Part shown: piece after piece, positions 2,341 to 29,296 of the stretch
How the letters are laid out: each line of letters starts with the position of its first letter
Numbering within the stretch: position 1 is the first letter of the stretch
IMG/VR virus record: IMGVR_UViG_3300045988_117301
Length of the DNA stretch: 41,741 nt
Reading direction: 5' to 3' (one strand)
Origin: a virus
Lineage: Duplodnaviria; Heunggongvirae; Uroviricota; Caudoviricetes
Translations under genes and position numbers: made by a program
Notes under the pieces: generated by a model
The model's input: only the letters and a program-made list of their open reading frames with translations
Databases searched by the model: none
What the model was told of the DNA's origin: nothing

Positions 2341-4400
2341 TCCACAACCTCCCCAAGCTGCGCATCTGTTAGCTCTTTATGCCAGAGACGAAAATTCCTC
2401 ACATGCCCAAATAAATGGCGTAATCCTGCTGTAGTTTGTCCACCAATGCGAATGGTTGCTGTACTCCGGATATATTCCCATTTGGTTTTAGTTTCGCTGC
2501 TTAACTTACCGTTACTGACTACACATGTGGACCGTTCGGACTTTACCCGCATACCAATAAGCATTTTTTCCAGCCCGGCATTTTCATTTATTCGTCGGTC
2601 TGAACCACCTATATCGCAATACGGAAAACCGTCGTACCCACCTGATGAACCAAACCCCATTACGATCCCCGCTCCGGTTTGATGACCGCCGGTATCAAAA
2701 ACACGCGGCGCTACATTTGGCGTTTTATACCAGTTCTTATGTACCTCACAAAGAACCGTAAAAGGAAGATTATAAAGGTTATTCTTGATTGGGACTGTCA
2801 CCATATCGCTTGCCCGCGTTGCCGGTGTCGTCCCCGTAACAATAAAAGATGATGTGCCTGTACCAGCCTCAATCTGTGGAGTGGTTACATCGAGATAATC
2901 CCCTGATGCAACCATCTGCCCTGTATCCGGAGAATACTGGACAAAACCACCAACCGTATTTTCTGTTGTATCTGCTTTTAATGTAGCCTCAAAAAATATC
3001 CAGCCAGTTGCATCATCCTTAACAGACCTTGCTGTAACACGGCTTGTCTGACCTGTCTTGCTAATTATGCGGGTGGTAAGGTTCAGGTTTGCTGCTCCTA
3101 TTGATGTCCTTACCTCCCCATCATAATGTTCAAATAAAATACGAACGGCGATATTATCAACTTCACTTTTTACCCGACAGGATATAGTTACATGCTTTTC
3201 GTCCCCTGAAGTATCAACCCCTCCGGTACTCGAATACAGTCCGATAATGGTATGCGCTTTACTTGTACCAACAATCGAATCCTGTACGACAAACCGGCCA
3301 TAATTAAACCCGAAACTATCTGTGCCTGTTTCTGTAACGTCCAGTGAAGTTGACTTATTCCACTTCGAAGGGTCTGTACTGTTCTGGAAGAAGTTCGTTC
3401 TTTGTCCCTCAATAAGCAGGCCATCACACTCAAATCGCGGCTCATTAATTTCCGCCGTTTTCAGTTCGCCAGATTTGTTGATATATGTTGCCGTTGATGC
3501 GCGACTGAAATTAACCTGTTTATCACTGGCAACCTGAACCACATTATCACCAATCTTCACTTTTTTATAACCCGGAGAATAGCCCGTAATCATATCCAGC
3601 GAATCATTAAAGGGTATCCACACATCCGGCAGCGGCTGTAAAACATATCTGTACGGCTCTGCTGTCTGGTTTGCGTATTCTCTGGCAGCATCTTCACTTG
3701 CTTTTGCTGCCGTCTGGCTTGCTGCCGATGCTTTCGCCGAGTTCGCCGCCGCTGTTTCGCTCACCTTTGCGTTGGCTTCACTGTCTTTGGCATTCGTCTC
3801 ACTGGTTTTCGCTGCCGTCTGGCTGGATTTTGCGTTTTTTTCGCTGGCCTTTGTGGCTGTCTCGCTATTTTTCGCGCTGGTTTCTGATTTTTTGGCTGCT
3901 GTCGCGGAGTTTGCCGATGCAGTCTGCGAGGCCGCTGCCGCCTGTGCGCTGTTAGCTGCATTCGTTTCTGAGGTTTTCGCCGCATTCTTCGATGAGGCTG
4001 CTGCCGTTTCGGATTTCTTTGCCGCCGCTGCACTCTGTGATGACGCTCCGGCATGACGTGCCACTTCATTCACCATCAGCTCAAAACGGCGCAGTGCCTC
4101 CGGACGAACATCATCCTCCGTCATGGCACCGAGAAAATCATTCAGCGTACCTGGTCTGGAACCTTCATAGACGGTAATGGTCCCGGCATGTGAAGGCGGA
4201 AAACCTTCAACCAGCAGGGCGACGCTGTACTGGCCATACTCAACATCCATGCTGTAACGCCCGGCTTCATCCGGATTTTCAGAGGCCACCGTGTTCACCA
4301 CCACCGTGCTGCTGGTCCGTCTGGCCTTCAGCACAATGGTGCAGTTCTGTACTGGTTTTCCTGTGCCATCTTTAAGCACGCCAGAAATTTTTACTGTCAT
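2337..4400 (-). CDS. Side tail fiber protein
   Basis: 687 aa; N-terminal MTVKISGVLKDGTGKPVQNCTIVLKARR... is the conserved prophage tail fibre N-terminal domain; long Ala/Ser/Thr/Lys-rich repeat tract (AAKTSETNA-type) as in StfR-type fibers; Shine-Dalgarno GGTGGA. Confidence 0.85.
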   Translation of the reverse strand: MTVKISGVLKDGTGKPVQNCTIVLKARRTSSTVVVNTVASENPDEAGRYSMDVEYGQYSVALLVEGFPPSHAGTITVYEGSRPGTLNDFLGAMTEDDVRPEALRRFELMVNEVARHAGASSQSAAAAKKSETAAASSKNAAKTSETNAANSAQAAAASQTASANSATAAKKSETSAKNSETATKASEKNAKSSQTAAKTSETNAKDSEANAKVSETAAANSAKASAASQTAAKASEDAAREYANQTAEPYRYVLQPLPDVWIPFNDSLDMITGYSPGYKKVKIGDNVVQVASDKQVNFSRASTATYINKSGELKTAEINEPRFECDGLLIEGQRTNFFQNSTDPSKWNKSTSLDVTETGTDSFGFNYGRFVVQDSIVGTSKAHTIIGLYSSTGGVDTSGDEKHVTISCRVKSEVDNIAVRILFEHYDGEVRTSIGAANLNLTTRIISKTGQTSRVTARSVKDDATGWIFFEATLKADTTENTVGGFVQYSPDTGQMVASGDYLDVTTPQIEAGTGTSSFIVTGTTPATRASDMVTVPIKNNLYNLPFTVLCEVHKNWYKTPNVAPRVFDTGGHQTGAGIVMGFGSSGGYDGFPYCDIGGSDRRINENAGLEKMLIGMRVKSERSTCVVSNGKLSSETKTKWEYIRSTATIRIGGQTTAGLRHLFGHVRNFRLWHKELTDAQLGEVVE

Positions 4401-4551: not shown

Positions 4552-5151
4552 TCAGAAACGGTATCCGATACCAACAATAAATGCATCCGTTCGCCAGTCG
4601 CCACTGCCGGAGCCTTCATAAGCAATATCAATGGCCACGGATTCGGTCGGGTTAAACTGCACGCCAGCTCCCCACGCCAGAGAGGTATTGCTGTGGCGAC
4701 CGTCATCACTTCCGGTCAGCACGTCGTGCGTTTTCCCCTTGTTGTCAGTTACGCGGAGATAATCCCCGGAGAAAGTCGACACACGGCTGTAAGCCACACC
4801 CGCGATCGCATACGCGCTGAACCATTCATTCACGCGCACAGACGGCCCCGCCATCACGCTGAACCAGCGGTTACGCACGGAATCTTCATGCCAGCGGGTA
4901 TCGCTGTAATGCGTTTTTTGTTCATCTTCTGCGTCGGCATAACTGAAAGACGTAATCAGCCCCAGCGTGTCCGTAAATTCATAACGGTATTTCACGTTAA
5001 TCCCGTTCAGATTATCGCTTCCTGGCATATCAGTGTGGGTCTGAAGATACCCGGCGCTTAGTGTGGACTGATGCTCTGCTGCGCTCGCTGGCGTACCAGC
5101 GGCAACCAGCCAGACTACTGCGGACAGAATAACAGCACATAATTTACGCAT
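4552..5151 (-). CDS. lom: Ail/Lom/PagC-family outer membrane protein
   Basis: 199 aa with signal peptide (MRKLCAVILSAVVWLVAAGTPASA), beta-barrel OMP pattern ending in aromatic GIGYRF; in the lambda lom position between J and stf. Confidence 0.85.
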   Translation of the reverse strand: MRKLCAVILSAVVWLVAAGTPASAAEHQSTLSAGYLQTHTDMPGSDNLNGINVKYRYEFTDTLGLITSFSYADAEDEQKTHYSDTRWHEDSVRNRWFSVMAGPSVRVNEWFSAYAIAGVAYSRVSTFSGDYLRVTDNKGKTHDVLTGSDDGRHSNTSLAWGAGVQFNPTESVAIDIAYEGSGSGDWRTDAFIVGIGYRF

Positions 5152-5174
5152 AATTACCTCTCGCTTTTCTGCAA

Positions 5175-5200
5175 TAAAAAAGGCGCCATTTCTGGCGCCC
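5175..5200 (-). terminator. Rho-independent terminator downstream of J, upstream of lom
   Basis: Palindromic stem GGCGCC (5182-5187 and 5194-5199), T-run on the minus strand (plus-strand A-run 5175-5181). Confidence 0.55.
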
Positions 5201-5218
5201 GTATTGGGGTTATAAAAT

Positions 5219-8200
5219 TCAGCTAATCGTGATGCCTGCAGTGGCTTTCTTCATCACAACAACCAGCAAATCGCTGATACTTGCTGTGGGATACCAGCCA
5301 TTTACCCACCATGCTGATACAGAAAACTCCAGCGTCATGTGGCCGCGACCAGCAGGCATATCAATAACACCACTGTAAACCAGCGTATTATCCATCGCGG
5401 TACGGTTATAAATTTCAGCACCGTTTTTCTTCACTATCAGGCGGCATGACGAATAAGTATCGCTGTTCTCCCGCTCATGTCTGGCACCGCTGAAAGCCAC
5501 CGCCGGAATAACAATCTGCCGGTTAAACGGCTGATCGTCATAAACCCTGACGGTAATGGTTCCTGATGGCCAACGCTCCGGTGCACGGGAGTCACGAGGG
5601 AAAGCCTTACCCACTGTTTTAACGAGATCGCCTTCAATCTGGTTTGCAGACAGTTTCCCTCTGATGACACAGTTCTCGTTAATGGTGACATTATTGAGCG
5701 TGCCGGTATTCGCCGTGATGGCTCCACTGATATCCGCATTGCGGGCTGTCAGCCTGCCATCCGGCGTCAGGGAAAACGTCGGAGGATTGCCGGATGACGT
5801 GATGCTCACCGCAAACAGTCGCTTCAGGAACACGTCGTTCATGAACAGCTGATTCCCCTGCGCCACAAACAGCGGCGTGGTGTTGCCGTTCTCCGGGGTA
5901 ATCATCGCAATGCGATCGGCCTGCAGCAGAATGTTACTCAGGGTCTGACCATCAACATCCTCAATCCCCGCACCAATCCCGGCCACATAGGGAATACCGT
6001 TTTTTGTTTTCTGCACCTTCAGCATATACATGGCATTCAGCTCATTGCGCGTGTCTGACTGAACCCGCTGGATTTGCTGTATGGTCACGGCCTGGTCACC
6101 CAGCTTTTTATCCGTGGTCGAGGTAATTTCACTCCCTTTTTTATCCACGTACTGGCGGACCTGTGCTATCTGTCGGGCGTTTTCTGACTGCCCCTGGCTG
6201 ACAGTCTGTGAGATTTCACTGCTCACCCGGTCCACTTTCTGGCTCACCTGCGCGATGGCCAGTGTCTGGTCCTCATTCTTTTTCGCAACCAGCTGCGTGA
6301 GGCTGTTTTCCGCCTTCCCGATTTTCCGGGTCACTTCTGCGATATCCGTGTCCATCCGCTGACGGATATCTTCTTCCAGTTGCGTGACCTCCGTACGCAG
6401 CGCTGAAGCATCAATGCGCTCTTTCAGTGCCTGGCCCAGAAGCGTCTCATCTATCAGCCCCCGGAAAATTTCCAGATACCCTTCACCATCATTGCTGGGC
6501 TGCCCGCTGGCTTCCACAAAAGCAGATTTTCCCACCAGGTTGACGCTTCGCACGTAAAACCAGAAATCCGTCCCCGGCTTAATCCGGCTCCCCTGGACAG
6601 TCCACTGACTGCCGGTCCCCAGATAACGGGCAGATTTTTCCACCTGTGCTGTGTTCGTGATGCGTTTTTCTGAGAACCAGAATTCAAACTGTACCGTCGG
6701 GTCATACACCGCAAGACGCGGGACCGCCGTTATCTGAAAATACCCCGGCGTCAGCTCAATGGTGGCGGGTTTTGCAGGTGCGTTAATCCGGAACGATACC
6801 GACGCCGGATCGCCCTGCTGTCCCCGGGTATTTACCGCCCGGACCGTCAGCGTGTAACGCCCCAGCGCCAGCTGCCTGAAGCGGTAAGTGGTTTCCGCCG
6901 TCCGGGCCGTGCTGACCAGCCGCTCACTGCCGTCATCCGCTGTTACGGTCAGACGGAGCAGGAAGCTCACGCCCTTCACCACCTTCGGCGTGTCCCAGCG
7001 CGCCAGCACCTGATATTCCCCGCTGTCTGCGGTGACTTCGGCGGTCAGGTGCTGCACCGCTGGCGGCGTGACACCATTCACCGTGCCGCTCTGGTCGCCG
7101 TCAAAGTGCGCTCCGTTATCCACGATGGCCTCTTTTTCCGGTACATGCTGCACGGCGGTGATGGCATACGCACCGTCATCGTTCTCCCGGATACTCACAC
7201 AGCGGAACAGGCGCTGGCGCAGCGTCGGCAGCTTCAGCCCCCACACGCTGTATTCGGCAACGCCGTCAGGAATACGGCTCACTTTCACCTTCACGCCGTC
7301 GGTGACGGACTGGACCTCCACGCTGACCGGATTACCCTGACCGTCAACAAGGCTTATCAGCGTGGTACCGGAGGATGGCAGCGTGATTTCACGGTCGAGC
7401 GTCAGCGTCCGGGTCTGGCTGTTCACCGCCAGCACGCGCCCGCCGGTGCTGATACCGGCATAGTCATCATCACAGATTTCAATGACATCGCCCGGAACAT
7501 GGCGAAGCCCTTCTGCGCCCACGCTGAAATCCACGGTCTGCGTTTCCAGCAGTTCCGTTTTAATCAGCCACAGCCCGGCGCGGTGTGCCTGCCCCCGGCT
7601 GGTACAGCCAAAGGCATCCATCTTCGTGACATTACGACCGTAACGGGCAATGGCCTGCGTATCTTCAACAAGCTCTGTCGCCGTCTCCCAGCCGTTGTTC
7701 GGGTCAATCCAGTTCACCTCAACGGCATTATGGCGGTCCTTCAGGGCGCTGAAGCTGTAGCGGAACGGCGCGCCATCATCCGGCATCACCACATTACTGC
7801 GGTTATAGGTCCACACCTTATCCGACTGTCGGTCCTGCACGAACGTCAGCGTCTGCCCGTTCCATACCGGCATACAGCGCATCGCCGAGCAGAAATCACT
7901 GAGCACATCCCACGCCTTGCGCTGTGTGGTCAGGTACGCATTACAGGTGATGCGCGGCTCCGTGCCGCCAAAGCCGTCCGGCACTGACTGGTCGCAGTAC
8001 TGGCCGATGACATACAGCGCCCATTTGTCCACATCCGCCGCACCAAGACGTTTCCCCATGCCGTAGCGCGGGTGGGTCAGCATATCCCACAGACACCAGG
8101 CCATGTTGTTGCTGTATGCTGGTTTTAACGTTCCGTCCCAGATACCGCTGTATTGCCGCGTCTGCGGGTTATAATTCGACGGCACCTGCAGAATGCGCCC

Positions 8201-24583: not shown

Positions 24584-25126
24584 TTAATTGGTGAGTCCGG
24601 GGATTACGGTTTGCCCGTGCTGTTCAAGGCGTTCAATTCTCGCCAGTAGCTGAGGCTTCTTAATTTTTCCCCAGCGATTAAGCAGGCGGCCTGACATGCT
24701 GGCAACATCCTTCTCTTTCATGTACTCCAGCATTACGGCATTTCTCTCTTCTTCAAATTGACGATGACCAACCTGAAGCATGGCGTACATCCAGTTGAAT
24801 GCGTTGATGTAAGCAATTTTGATACGCATTGCTTCTTTTTTGGTGTAGGACATAACCAAAAGCATCAACCCATCCTTGCGGAGACGGTAGAATTTTTGCG
24901 GCTTACCATTCTGTAACTCATTGTTTTTATAGCAAAGCTCAAAATTGAGCTTTGTATCAAACTCAGGAGGGCAAGCTTCTATGGTTCGTTCAATGTCACG
25001 AACCACGTTCTTCGGCAGCTTTCCAAATGCTTTTGCCACCATAAAAGAATCTGTAACCGGATCGTTGTTTGCTACAAAAATTAGGTCTCTGAAATCTATA
25101 TCGTTAACAACGGTTGGGTAGTTCAT
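24584..25126 (-). CDS. Rha-family phage regulatory protein (moron between lysis and packaging genes)
   Basis: 180 aa; N-terminal FVANNDPVTDSFMVAKAFGKLPKNVVRDIE matches the Rha domain signature. Confidence 0.75.
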   Translation of the reverse strand: MNYPTVVNDIDFRDLIFVANNDPVTDSFMVAKAFGKLPKNVVRDIERTIEACPPEFDTKLNFELCYKNNELQNGKPQKFYRLRKDGLMLLVMSYTKKEAMRIKIAYINAFNWMYAMLQVGHRQFEEERNAVMLEYMKEKDVASMSGRLLNRWGKIKKPQLLARIERLEQHGQTVIPGLTN

Positions 25127-25298: not shown

Positions 25299-25473
25299 TA
25301 AATCCTGGTATTTGTAATGAACTGGCTCTTATCTCAACGCAGCCCCTTACCGCGCGCCATATGCTCAACTTCAAGCATCAGCAATGAGATGTTTAATCTG
25401 GATTCACTCCAGAAGTGAGCACCACCCTGTCTACAGAGCCAGATGTGAAGGATGATGAGTAAAATTATCGCTA

Positions 25474-25941
25474 TCATCGAAGGCATTGCGTCCTGATGTA
25501 TTCCTGAAGCGTTCTCAGTGCTGTCTGGTCTCTGATGATTCCGTCCCGGATACCGAGAACGTTTCGTCCAGCAACTGGAGAGAGTTCGACGGTGGCATCA
25601 TTGCCCATGCCGGAGGCGCTGGAGGTTTCGGCTGAGGATGGCACAGAGCATTTTCCTTTGACGAGCACCCGACCACCATTATCAAGCTTGCGCCGAAGAG
25701 CATCATTTTCAGCTTTCGCATCAGCCAACTCCTTCGTGTATTTAGCATCGAGTACATCAGCAGCACGCTGGCGTTGCTGCATGTCAGTAATGGTGGCGGT
25801 CGCCTGCTTCAGCTCACTGACTTTTTTATCACGCTGTTCTTTGTAGGCGATGGCGTTATCACGGTAATGATTGACCGCCCACGACAGGCAGACGATGATG
25901 CAGATAACCAGAGCATAAATAATCGCGGCGACTCTGCTCAC
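25474..25941 (-). CDS. Rz: Spanin inner-membrane subunit Rz
   Basis: Start GTG 25941 overlapping endolysin stop (GTGA); (V)[33 protein letters not shown]... closely matches lambda Rz as recalled. Confidence 0.85.
25515..25721 (-). CDS. Rz1: Spanin outer-membrane lipoprotein Rz1, embedded in +1 frame within Rz
   Basis: [21 protein letters not shown]... with lipobox VVGC and Pro-rich PKPPAPPAW, like lambda Rz1. Confidence 0.75.
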
Positions 25942-26471
25942 TGATCTATCCCCCAACAGGCTAATGCGCTTTCCTGGTCACGACGAATAACCTGTCCATA
26001 GCAGTTATTTGAACGTATGCGGCAATCGCGCCCACCATCTTTTATCCACCAGCGAATCGCCTCGCATGCACTCTTACGATCACCGGCATTCAGCCGCTTA
26101 TAAAACGTCGACGGGAAACACTTACCGGGGCCAATGTTATAGGGACAAAATGACGCTATACCCGCTTTCTGTGGTTCGGTCAGTGGTACTTTAATATTGC
26201 GCTCCACCCATGCCAGCGCCTTATCACGTTCAATAGCGTTAACCTGGTCGCATTTTTCCTTCGACAGCTTCATTCCCGGTATGACGGGCTTACCATCCAC
26301 CATTGTGGCACCACGACAGATGGTCCATATACCGGAACCATCGCGGTATGCCGTAGTGTGGTTACCCTCTTTTTCATCCAGAAACTGGTCAAGTATTTGA
26401 GGAGCAGACGAGCCTGCAGCAATCAGCGCCAGAACGGCAGCCGACAGGCCGTATCTGATTTTTGCGTTCAT
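25938..26471 (-). CDS. SAR endolysin (T4-lysozyme-like muramidase with N-terminal signal-anchor-release domain)
   Basis: 177 aa; N-terminal weakly hydrophobic Gly/Ala-rich segment [18 protein letters not shown]; lysozyme core; partner of a pinholin. Confidence 0.9.
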
Positions 26472-26534
26472 GGATATTTATCAGGATTTATCGGTTTCTG
26501 CCCACGGACAGGTTTATCTGTTCCGGTCAGTGAC

Positions 26535-26885
26535 TTAAGGTTGTGATTCCGGAGGAGTCTTCAGAGAACCAGTAATTCTTCCTGGTAGCTTTCCTTTGTA
26601 GGTTATCCACACATTCTGCGCATCTAAAATTACGGGGCGCTTTTCCGGCGACTGCTCATCCCCTTCACATAACCCGGCAGCAACATCCAGGAAGACCTGT
26701 CTGATGCTCCTTCTGGCTGCTGCCTCATAAAACTCCAGCGCGGCACCTTCAACACGGTCCAGCGAGATGTCCAGGTCAAAAATTTCACCGTCAAAGCGTT
26801 TTTTGTCCCGTAACGCTACAGTTACCGTAACTTTATTCTCAAAATTGCGGATCCCTTTCACAATCAGTTCATAGTTTTGAGTCAT
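26535..26885 (-). CDS. Uncharacterized protein inserted between holin and endolysin (YdfR/DUF1327-like)
   Basis: 116 aa, ATG 26885 with Shine-Dalgarno GGGGAGAG overlapping the holin 3' end; no TM segment; recalled similarity to Qin prophage YdfR, which sits between essQ and rrrQ. Confidence 0.6.
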   Translation of the reverse strand: MTQNYELIVKGIRNFENKVTVTVALRDKKRFDGEIFDLDISLDRVEGAALEFYEAAARRSIRQVFLDVAAGLCEGDEQSPEKRPVILDAQNVWITYKGKLPGRITGSLKTPPESQP

Positions 26886-26889
26886 TGAA

Positions 26890-27105
26890 TTACTCTCCCC
26901 GTGCAGCCTTACGCTTGTCTTCTTTAATCTTGAAATAAAGGTTTGTCAGATACGTCAGCAAGCCAAATACCAGACTACCCAGCACACCTATTGCCGCCCA
27001 CTGTGAGGGCGTGACTTTATCGAGCAACTGTAAAAACCAGTACCCGGCACTACCTGCTGAGGTGCCATAGGCGACACCCGTTGTTAACTTATCCATGGAT
27101 TTCAT
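26890..27105 (-). CDS. Pinholin, phage 21 S-type, with dual-start motif
   Basis: [71 protein letters not shown] closely matches S21 as recalled; two ATGs (27105 and 27096) separated by Lys-Ser give antiholin/holin forms. Confidence 0.85.
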
Positions 27106-27140: not shown

Positions 27141-27166
27141 AAATAAAAAGGCCACCTGACGTGGCC
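27141..27166 (-). terminator. Rho-independent terminator between the methyltransferase moron and the holin
   Basis: Minus strand GGCCAC-gtcag-GTGGCC followed by TTTTTATTT. Confidence 0.5.
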
Positions 27167-27172
27167 ACCAGA

Positions 27173-28225
27173 TTATTTCCCCACCAGCTCGTTTATCTCT
27201 TTCACTGTCTGGTTAAACCGCTCTGACTCAAGCTCAACACCTAAGGCCCGACGCCCCAGCGCCATTGCTGCTTTTATTGTGGAACCGGAGCCCATAAAAA
27301 AATCAGCAACCAGATCACCTGGTCGACTACTGGCATTGATTATTTGCCTGAGCATATCCGCCGGTTTCTCACACGGATGTTTCCCCGGGTAGAACTGAAC
27401 GGGTTTATGCATCCAGACGTCGGTATAAGGCACGGAAACTGATACGGAGAAATAGCGCCGGAGAGTTTTAAACTCATCCAGCAATTCATAATATTTGCGA
27501 TTCAGTGAATCATAAGATGCCACCAGCTGGTGGTGTGGTTGTTCCAGTTGTTTTTCCTGAAACTTCTCTGCCGCTATACGGGAAAACAGTGCCTGCAACT
27601 TCCGGTAGTCAGCCTCATTCGGCAACTGCCACTGACTGGCACCAAACCAGTGGGAAACCATATTTTTCTTACCAGTGGCTTCGGCAATCTGTTTTGCCGT
27701 TATACCCAGTTCGGCACGAGCATCCCTGAAATACGATATCAGCGGTGCCATTATGTGCTGTTTGAGTTCCCTTTCTTTTGCCGCATAGCCGTCACTTTTG
27801 CCGCGATATGGCCCCTGGTAATGTTCAGCAAACAGAACGCGCTCTGTGGCAGGAAAATATGCGCGCAGACTTTCTTTATTACACCCATTCCAACGTCCGG
27901 ACGGCTTCGCCCAGATGATATGGTTAAGCACGTTGAAACGTTCACGCATCATGATCTCAATATCAGATGCCAGGCGATGCCCACAGAACAGGTAAAGGCT
28001 TCCGGCAGGTTTCAACACCCGCCAGAACTGGGCCAGACAGTGGTCCAGCCACTTAAGGTAATCTTCGTCCCCTTTCCACTGATTGTCCCAGCCGTTGGGT
28101 TTCACCTTGAAGTAAGGCGGATCGGTAACAATCAGGTCAATGGAATCATCAGGCAGGGACTGAATAAAATGCAGGCAATCAGCGTTGATTAAATCAACAC
28201 TGTTTATTTTTACAGTATTTTTCAT
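27173..28225 (-). CDS. Orphan DNA methyltransferase, beta-class (DPPY motif; likely N6-adenine)
   Basis: 350 aa; motif [10 protein letters not shown] near N-terminus, AdoMet motif FFMGSGST near C-terminus; no adjacent restriction endonuclease. Confidence 0.85.
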
Positions 28226-28603: not shown

Positions 28604-28849
28604 GACATACCAATAACTCTTGTCTAAAAAGCCAGCAAGATAAAAGGTCAGTATTCACGACCACCAGCGTGTTTACTGTACTGCACCAAGTTTACAGGTA
28701 CAAAAAAACCGCTCAGCGGCGGGTTTAAGTTGTGTGGCGAAGTAACCACTCTTAACAGCATATTTGATTTTTTACGATTGTAAACGGTTGATTATTCATC
28801 TCCAATAAAAATAATTGTGTAGGTATGCCCTTAACAATGGATAAGAAAC

Positions 28850-29296
28850 ATGAATAAAATGACTGTACTATTACTTAGCGCAACTATCATTTCAGGTTGT
28901 ACTTCTTCCGTACCATTGATAAAAAAAACTCAATCAGGAAAACCTGAGGGGGTTTATCAAAATACGACAAAAGATAAAGTCAAAGATGCCCTTGTGAATT
29001 ACTGCAATAGTAGAGGGTTGATAATTTACAACGCTGATAACAGCAGTGTTATATGTGGTAAAGAACTGGAAGGCGGGTCTGCTGTTTTTGGACAAATGTT
29101 AATCGGCAATGCCTATTCAACAACCCCGGTATCAAAAGTCAGATTTACTATCGCTCAAGTTAATAACGATACAAAAGTGTGGGCCGATATGTGGATGGAA
29201 ACTCAAATGGCAATGGGGCAAGTACAACAAATGGCTATAACAGACAACGCAAGCAAAAACACTATCCAACAACGTCTTGATGAATTAAAACCTTAA
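28850..29296 (+). CDS. AT-rich moron lipoprotein
   Basis: 148 aa; signal peptide with lipobox IISGC (Cys17); markedly AT-rich codon usage; opposite strand to surrounding late genes. Confidence 0.65.
   Translation: MNKMTVLLLSATIISGCTSSVPLIKKTQSGKPEGVYQNTTKDKVKDALVNYCNSRGLIIYNADNSSVICGKELEGGSAVFGQMLIGNAYSTTPVSKVRFTIAQVNNDTKVWADMWMETQMAMGQVQQMAITDNASKNTIQQRLDELKP

Follow-up and report, generated by a model that had tools for sequence, protein, structure and literature searches.

The viral DNA sequence IMGVR_UViG_3300045988_117301 (Caudoviricetes; 41,741 nucleotides, nt, referred to here at its full length as the window) carries on its minus strand, at positions 25474-27105, an ordinary lysis cassette of the Qin/mEp460 type, as found in lambdoid prophages of Escherichia coli. 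Between the holin gene (S) and the endolysin gene (R) of this cassette lies ydfR, which encodes a 116-amino acid (aa) protein of the YdfR/DUF1327 family, and it is this gene that concerns us. We establish the identities of the cassette genes, the family to which ydfR belongs, its optional and mosaic distribution, the variability of its partners, the purifying selection acting on it, and the loss of the Shine-Dalgarno sequence in front of R in the ydfR-containing loci examined. To judge by these comparisons, ydfR looks like an optional accessory gene without a fixed partner. It lies right at the S/R junction, where it uses the ribosome-binding site embedded in the 3' end of the holin gene. Tentatively, and at a little less than an even chance, we favor the view that its product is an optional cytoplasmic late protein that acts on host RNase E or on RNA. 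A sequence-only reading had proposed instead, from the position of the gene, a modulator of lysis timing or endolysin release. Against this speak the absence of ydfR from most S21 cassettes, the variety of its neighbors, the recurrence of its N-terminal domain in tail modules, and the data on RNase E and RNA for the homologue in E. coli K-12 (PMC13232886).

The cassette comprises five genes, found by Pfam matches and by inspection of the open reading frames (ORFs) where the sequence-only reading had placed them. With the two non-coding features that matter here, they are as follows (E, expectation value of the Pfam match; dG, predicted free energy of pairing with the anti-Shine-Dalgarno sequence).

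26890-27105, minus strand: class II holin of the S21 type (a pinholin; 71 aa), MKSM dual start M1/M4; PF04971 ('P21 holin S'), E 2e-35
26893-26900, minus strand: Shine-Dalgarno (SD) sequence GGGGAGAG, within the last holin codons, 7 nt ahead of the ATG of ydfR; dG -8.5
26535-26885, minus strand: ydfR (YdfR/DUF1327 family), 116 aa; PF07041, E 2.4e-43
26472-26534, minus strand: ydfR-R spacer, 63 nt, the SD-less AU-rich leader of R (...GAUAAAUCCUGAUAAAUAUCC-AUG)
25938-26471, minus strand: GH24 endolysin R, 177 aa, with an N-terminus like that of signal-arrest-release (SAR) proteins (RrrQ / 933W-R type); PF00959, E 2e-24
25474-25941, minus strand: Rz i-spanin, 155 aa, GTG start; PF03245, E 9e-29, and the annotation of PhiR40_1 and mEp460
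25515-25721, minus strand: Rz1 o-spanin lipoprotein, 68 aa, lipobox VVGC; PF06085, E 8e-21; SD dG -8.3

The cassette is already known and annotated. Many E. coli chromosomes share a 1.85-kb region with the window at 99.9% identity and label the gene 'YdfR family protein'; among phages, the DNA identity of this region is 99.8% to PhiR40_1 and PhiR55_1 and 98.7% to mEp460. As matters stand, ydfR is well annotated and optional, and the cassette that carries it is a standard one.

A small and modular protein family

The sequence-only reading suggested a hidden Markov model search for DUF1327, and this bore it out: the 116-aa protein scores 146.7 bits against PF07041, whose curated cut-off is 25. 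It also matches five PHROG families, each of unknown function. Nowhere in the protein is there a hydrophobic segment (the maximum in a Kyte-Doolittle 17-residue window, KD17, is 0.56), and it is expected to be soluble. An N-domain (residues 1-75) is followed by an acidic linker and then by what we call module B (RPVILDAQNVWITYKGKLPGRITGSLKTPP). The resemblance to YdfR of the K-12 Qin prophage, which the same reading had noted, holds for residues 1-74, which are 82% identical, but not for the C-terminal 40 residues, which are unrelated.

This modularity characterizes the family. A conserved 75-residue N-domain is joined to varying pieces at the C-terminus: the tail found in Qin; module B RPIILEAQNVWITYKGKLPGRITGSLKTPP, the type in the window; module B with a coiled-coil extension, in forms of 176/183 aa; and larger pieces in proteins of 206-287 aa. 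Domain fusions in the longer members (176-287 aa) offered families of unknown function only. Some alleles are recombinant, that of phiSTEC1575-Stx2k being an intragenic mix of BP-4795-type and window-type N-domains, and long ydfR copies split by frameshifts occur in at least 10 contigs, for example at 5001-5517 of locus L098 and 3001-3345 of locus L103.

AlphaFold2, given a diverse alignment, predicts with confidence for the N-domain—to which the model is limited—three strands in antiparallel order and then a single long helix (predicted local distance difference test score, pLDDT, 87). Fold searches returned just generic beta-beta-beta-alpha matches, none of them significant in Foldseek, and a profile search against sequences in the PDB gave no match. 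A double-stranded RNA-binding domain was considered and rejected: that fold is alpha-beta-beta-beta-alpha with an N-terminal recognition helix, and YdfR does not conform to it.

The family is small, with 81 representatives at 50% identity among 1.84 billion proteins, many of these being fragments. In a species-level genome set it occurs in Escherichia and Shigella only, bar two contigs from metagenome-assembled genomes ascribed to Veillonella parvula (L008) and to a Bacillota (L010). The holin and endolysin genes of these two are 94% identical to those of E. coli, and both are probably E. coli contigs that were mis-binned. Distant members consisting of the N-domain alone occur in Pantoea, Yersinia and Cronobacter. 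A scan of viral contigs with an alignment of the type found among tail genes, described below, gave no match.

ydfR is a real gene under purifying selection. The ratio of non-synonymous to synonymous substitution rates (dN/dS) comes to about 0.30, with 0.16 for the N-domain and 0.20 for module B; for the holin gene and R it is 0.08 and 0.06, respectively. Between deeply diverged N-domain types the ratio is 0.17-0.41. These values are rough, since the close alleles have diverged so little.

RNase E as a candidate partner

The lead toward RNase E comes from Goepel et al. 2026 (PMC13232886), who recovered the first 72 codons of K-12 ydfR in a two-hybrid screen. In the bacterial two-hybrid system YdfR residues 1-72 interact with residues 1-597 of RNase E (Rne), full-length YdfR signals with the same part of Rne, and Strep-tagged YdfR pulls along FLAG-tagged Rne 1-598 together with nucleic acid that resists DNase (PMC13232886). 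By homology, the most likely target of the 116-aa protein of the window is the N-terminal, catalytic half of host RNase E, with RNA as a possible second one. The protein would then influence RNA metabolism while late genes are expressed, and not act directly on holin or endolysin. Both the binding by this particular protein and any effect on late mRNA are predictions. Literature on DUF1327, on essQ/rrrQ and on the genes of pinholin lysis cassettes offered no functional study of YdfR other than this one, and none concerning lysis timing.

Several observations weigh against such a role. The evidence on RNase E was obtained with K-12 YdfR that was overexpressed and whose C-terminal half differs from ours; overproduction altered few transcripts, and retention of the RNA by a contaminant is possible according to the authors themselves (PMC13232886). 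The N-domain is net acidic, which is atypical of RNA binders. In every Escherichia locus fetched ydfR immediately follows the holin gene, and other members of the family lie just upstream of holins, so an affinity for the lysis neighborhood is real. Finally, the Keio ydfR mutant is among the hits of the screen by Paradis-Bleau for envelope leakiness to chlorophenol red-beta-D-galactopyranoside (CPRG), where it is listed in supplementary tables only. Such a phenotype would fit either a lysis-related role or polarity on rrrQ, and we consider it just as likely that the kan cassette had a polar effect on rrrQ, which ydfR overlaps.

Phages are known to encode modulators of RNase E. Srd of T4, which binds the N-terminal half of the enzyme, gp0.7 of T7 and Dip of phiKZ are examples. 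For YdfR these serve as a working analogy only, drawn from the binding of the K-12 homologue to the catalytic half of RNase E and from the RNA that co-purifies with it (PMC13232886).

Distribution and partners of ydfR

Many E. coli prophages, among them phages converting to production of Shiga toxins (Stx) 1a and 2c, have a YdfR-family gene in their lysis cassettes, and such genes are carried by the viable phages mEp460, PhiR40_1, BP-4795 (an Stx1 phage) and Tritos. By comparison they look optional: among phage records an S21-type holin is present in 445 and DUF1327 in 101, counts of redundant records by which roughly three quarters of S21-type records lack ydfR. R follows S directly in VT2-Sakai, 434 and Shigella phage 7888, at the same 4-nt spacing at which ydfR follows S here.

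Nor are the partners constant. ydfR alleles 96-100% identical to one another lie beside holins of 79-100% and Rz proteins of 44-100% identity, a shuffling that supports the description of the cassette as mosaic in the sequence-only reading and argues against allele-matched partners. Over the family as a whole, YdfR keeps company with five holin families and three endolysin types. In phiSTEC1575-Stx2k the S21 holin-ydfR pair is followed by a holin/holin/M15-peptidase cassette, R having been replaced. Elsewhere a PF16080 holin lies upstream of a frameshifted long ydfR (L098), and a stand-alone N-domain gene directly follows the antiterminator gene Q, ahead of a holin of the lambda-S type and a GH19 endolysin (L111), or precedes PF16931/PF05449 holins and a soluble lysozyme (L109). 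Stand-alone N-domain genes also turn up among tail genes, between L and K (gpL/gpK) in loci L092-L097 and between I and J (gpI/gpJ) in L107 and L108. Copies upstream of holins and in tail clusters occur in phages of the Pantoea/Yersinia type.

Could YdfR nonetheless be a trans-acting lysis-timing factor, a cytoplasmic protein that binds the basic C-terminal tail or the N-terminus of the pinholin and so delays or sharpens its triggering? Some regularities are what one would expect of such a protein. In over 90 Escherichia loci, across N-domains that are 57-100% identical, the start of ydfR lies exactly 220 nt past that of the holin gene; the holin-ydfR pair has survived the replacement of R in phiSTEC1575-Stx2k; YdfR is net acidic where the holin tail, read from its sequence, is basic; and the Keio mutant scored, in those supplementary tables, for a leaky envelope. 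Yet most S21 cassettes, those of well-studied phages included, do without ydfR, the N-domain is also found beside four other holin families or beside none, in tail modules, and the alleles of ydfR are shuffled relative to those of the holin. When the N-domain was compared by tblastn with 50,697 phage records it matched only coliphage, Stx-converting and 'Enterobacteria phage' records, and showed no likeness to the antiholins of other phages. On balance we consider a factor of this kind unlikely.

Soluble lysis regulators of the antiholin type do exist, RIII of T4 and LydB of P1 among them, the gene for LydB lying immediately after that of its holin. With these, and with the holin modulator ORF52 of phage BSPM4 (PMC11657625), YdfR shares small size and a place next to a holin gene, and they provide the precedent for what the sequence-only reading proposed. 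It has no detectable sequence similarity to them, however, and it does not keep to one cognate holin, being found with PF04971, PF16080, PF05106, PF16931/PF05449, or none. ORF52 is reported to disrupt membranes when expressed (PMC11657625), whereas YdfR has no hydrophobic segment.

Capture of the ribosome-binding site

The start of ydfR is peculiar in one respect. The sequence-only reading credited the gene with its own SD, and an SD there is; in cassettes that lack ydfR, however, the same site serves R. In VT2-Sakai it is R whose start is preceded by GGGGAGAG, TAA and four bases before the ATG; in the window, in BP-4795 and in Qin it is ydfR. Predicted pairing with the anti-SD amounts to -7.9 to -8.5 kcal/mol for the holin, ydfR, Rz and Rz1, but to +0.6 for R, while the R genes of the ydfR-less cassettes of VT2-Sakai and 434 have an SD (dG -8.5 and -7.1, respectively). 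R is without an SD in all 96 of the ydfR-containing loci examined, diverged BP-4795 and Qin types included, loci that are mostly close relatives and so not independent. This arrangement, in which ydfR takes the holin-embedded SD and leaves R an SD-less leader, is a cis feature that has not been described previously.

The main effect of ydfR might then be exerted in cis. By taking the ribosome-binding site that is coupled to the holin, the gene would uncouple R from S and retune the ratio of endolysin to holin, its protein being possibly secondary; lower or later synthesis of the SAR endolysin would curb holin-independent leak lysis. Besides the contrast in SD strength, the first codons of R co-vary with the presence of ydfR (MNAKI/MNTKI versus MSRKL). 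Low expression of R, on the other hand, is not something that can be inferred from sequence, since AU-rich, unstructured leaders can initiate efficiently by way of ribosomal protein S1. The mechanism would not be uniform either, R being coupled to the ydfR stop (ATGA) in Qin and Tritos and separated from it by 63 nt here. Purifying selection on the protein would go unexplained by a role purely in cis, and the relatedness of the 96 loci dilutes their testimony. An effect principally in cis therefore strikes us as rather doubtful.

A search of the ydfR-R spacer for an RNA element gave no significant structure (fold z-score -0.10) and no Rfam match. At 26472-26492 (minus strand) two copies of GAUAAAU, with 3 nt between them, stand in the leader (GAUAAAUCCUGAUAAAUAUCC), and the motif is kept in BP-4795 with one change; it could be an S1 or AU-rich enhancer, a site prone to RNase E, or the product of chance.

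Taken together, YdfR and the SD-less AU-rich leader might form a post-transcriptional timer, in which RNase E, or RNA bound by YdfR, acts at the ydfR-R junction and so sets the relative amounts of SAR endolysin and pinholin. We regard this as a long shot, but were it true it would constitute a new, RNA-level layer in the control of pinholin/SAR lysis, and would tie host RNase E to lysis timing. More generally, if YdfR modulates RNase E or the expression of the SAR endolysin, phage release would be affected and, in Stx phages, possibly the release of toxin. The value of the present analysis lies in a sharper and testable framing, an effect in trans, through the protein, versus one in cis, through capture of a ribosome-binding site, with RNase E as a candidate partner.

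Moron-prone positions

The sites at which YdfR-family genes are found share late-operon transcription and a preference for moron-prone positions, several of them near lysis genes. YdfR could accordingly be moron-type cargo with no connection to lysis or to RNase E, serving for example in anti-defense, superinfection exclusion or host takeover. The positions occupied—after Q, within the lysis cassette, between tail genes L/K and I/J—are classic ones for morons, the C-terminal extensions are modular and shuffled, and the taxonomic range (Escherichia/Shigella, Pantoea, Yersinia, Cronobacter) is narrow. But ydfR has neither promoter nor terminator of its own and begins 4 nt from the holin stop, YdfR matches no defense model in PADLOC, domain fusions are uninformative, and positive evidence of any specific activity is wanting; we give the proposal little credence. 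That the ORF should be a functionless remnant, decaying or selfish, is hardly credible, for although ydfR is under weaker constraint than its neighbors and frameshifted or split copies (L098) and many truncated or chimeric forms are on record, its dN/dS is clearly below 1 even between deeply diverged types, its strong SD and intact frame persist in dozens of viable phages and thousands of genomes, and conservation of the N-domain extends to Pantoea and Yersinia.

Holin, endolysin and spanins

The remaining genes of the cassette—pinholin, SAR-type endolysin and Rz/Rz1 spanin—make up a complete lysis machinery, and in most respects they are what the sequence-only reading took them to be. The holin is of the S21 type in its family match (with phrog_20/9876, holin, in addition to Pfam), in its length (71 aa, within the 68-71 aa of the type), in its two transmembrane domains (TMDs) and in its dual start, M1 and M4 with a basic residue between them (MKSMDK...); its SD has a dG of -7.9. 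TMD2 has a KD17 of 2.0, and TMD1, as read from the sequence, is rich in Gly, Ala and Ser. Since it is 80% identical to the protein of phage 434 that is curated as a 'pinholin', it is predicted to make small (pin) holes that would depolarize the membrane and do nothing more.

The endolysin likewise answers to its earlier description, as a protein of the SAR type, which would be exported through Sec, tethered to the membrane and released when the membrane is depolarized. It has a T4-lysozyme-like domain, the motif E-x8-D-x5-T and a weakly hydrophobic N-terminal segment rich in Ala, Gly and Ser (residues 7-27, KD17 1.66), and among solved structures its relatives are the SAR endolysin R21 (3HDE, E 2e-15) and RrrD (4ZPU).

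Rz has an N-terminal TMD (KD17 3.0), and Rz1, with its lipobox, lies wholly within Rz in the +1 frame, (25941-25721) mod 3 being 1. This is the two-component embedded spanin of the lambda type, as had been recognized. The start of Rz had been put at TTG 25956; it is most likely GTG 25941, which overlaps the R stop as GTGA and matches the annotation of PhiR40_1.

Comparison with known cassettes

The closest parallel in K-12 is the cryptic prophage Qin (essQ-ydfR-rrrQ-rzpQ/rzoQ), which has the gene order of the window and the same 4-nt spacing between holin and ydfR. Its holin and its endolysin (RrrQ) are each 94% identical to those of the window, the N-domain of its YdfR 82%. The two differ in the C-terminal half of YdfR, module B with an ESQP end in the window and a KVESYLQ... 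tail in Qin; in the passage from ydfR to R, a 63-nt gap as against an ATGA overlap; and in their spanins, lambda-type Rz/Rz1 as against a DUF2514 RzpQ. mEp460, PhiR40_1, Tritos and BP-4795 have the same module, with ydfR between holin and endolysin.

Phage 21 (S21 68/71, R21, Rz/Rz1), 434 and 933W/VT2-Sakai have in common with the window the holin family, the dual start, a SAR-type GH24 endolysin and embedded spanins. In these phages, however, no gene intervenes between S and R, and it is R that draws on the SD in the 3' end of the holin gene, whereas in the window ydfR fills that slot and R has no SD.

Late-operon setting and neighboring genes

The window represents a lambdoid prophage, with its late genes on the minus strand in the order Q, DNA methylase, terminator-like hairpin, lysis cassette, Rha-like regulator, terminase, head and tail. 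The features that flank the cassette, and two small ORFs, are these.

29761-29381, minus strand: antiterminator Q; PF06530, E 2e-51
28850-29296, plus strand: 148-aa ORF with a lipoprotein-like signal (MNKMTVLLLSATIISGC), opposite in strand, between Q and the methylase
27173-28225, minus strand: N6/N4 DNA methyltransferase, 350 aa; PF01555; directly upstream of the holin
27150-27166, minus strand: intrinsic-terminator-like hairpin with T-run (GGCCACGTCAGGTGGCC TTTTTATTTC), between methylase stop and holin start
25334-25486, minus strand: 50-aa ORF with a strongly hydrophobic N-terminus (KD17 2.46), sharing the last 13 nt of Rz
24584-25126, minus strand: Rha/ORF11CD3-type regulator gene, downstream of Rz

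No internal sigma-70-like promoter for ydfR or R was found on the coding strand of the cassette. This, with the Q gene and the terminators, suggests that the cassette is transcribed as part of a Q-dependent late operon, in which RNA polymerase modified by Q would read through the hairpin at 27150-27166. The arrangement of methylase and terminator-like hairpin upstream of the holin is common to PhiR40_1 and mEp460.

Stx phages have an ant gene between R and Rz, whereas the window has its Rha/ORF11CD3-type gene downstream of Rz. A second terminator-like hairpin (25299-25280) lies between that gene and the 50-aa ORF. The 50-aa ORF has no match in Pfam or PADLOC. PhiR40_1 and mEp460 label it a hypothetical protein, and it may encode a small membrane protein of the lysis region. 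The 148-aa ORF has no Pfam match; a promoter-like site (28831-28860, 10/12 matches) is situated just upstream of it, and it looks like a moron.

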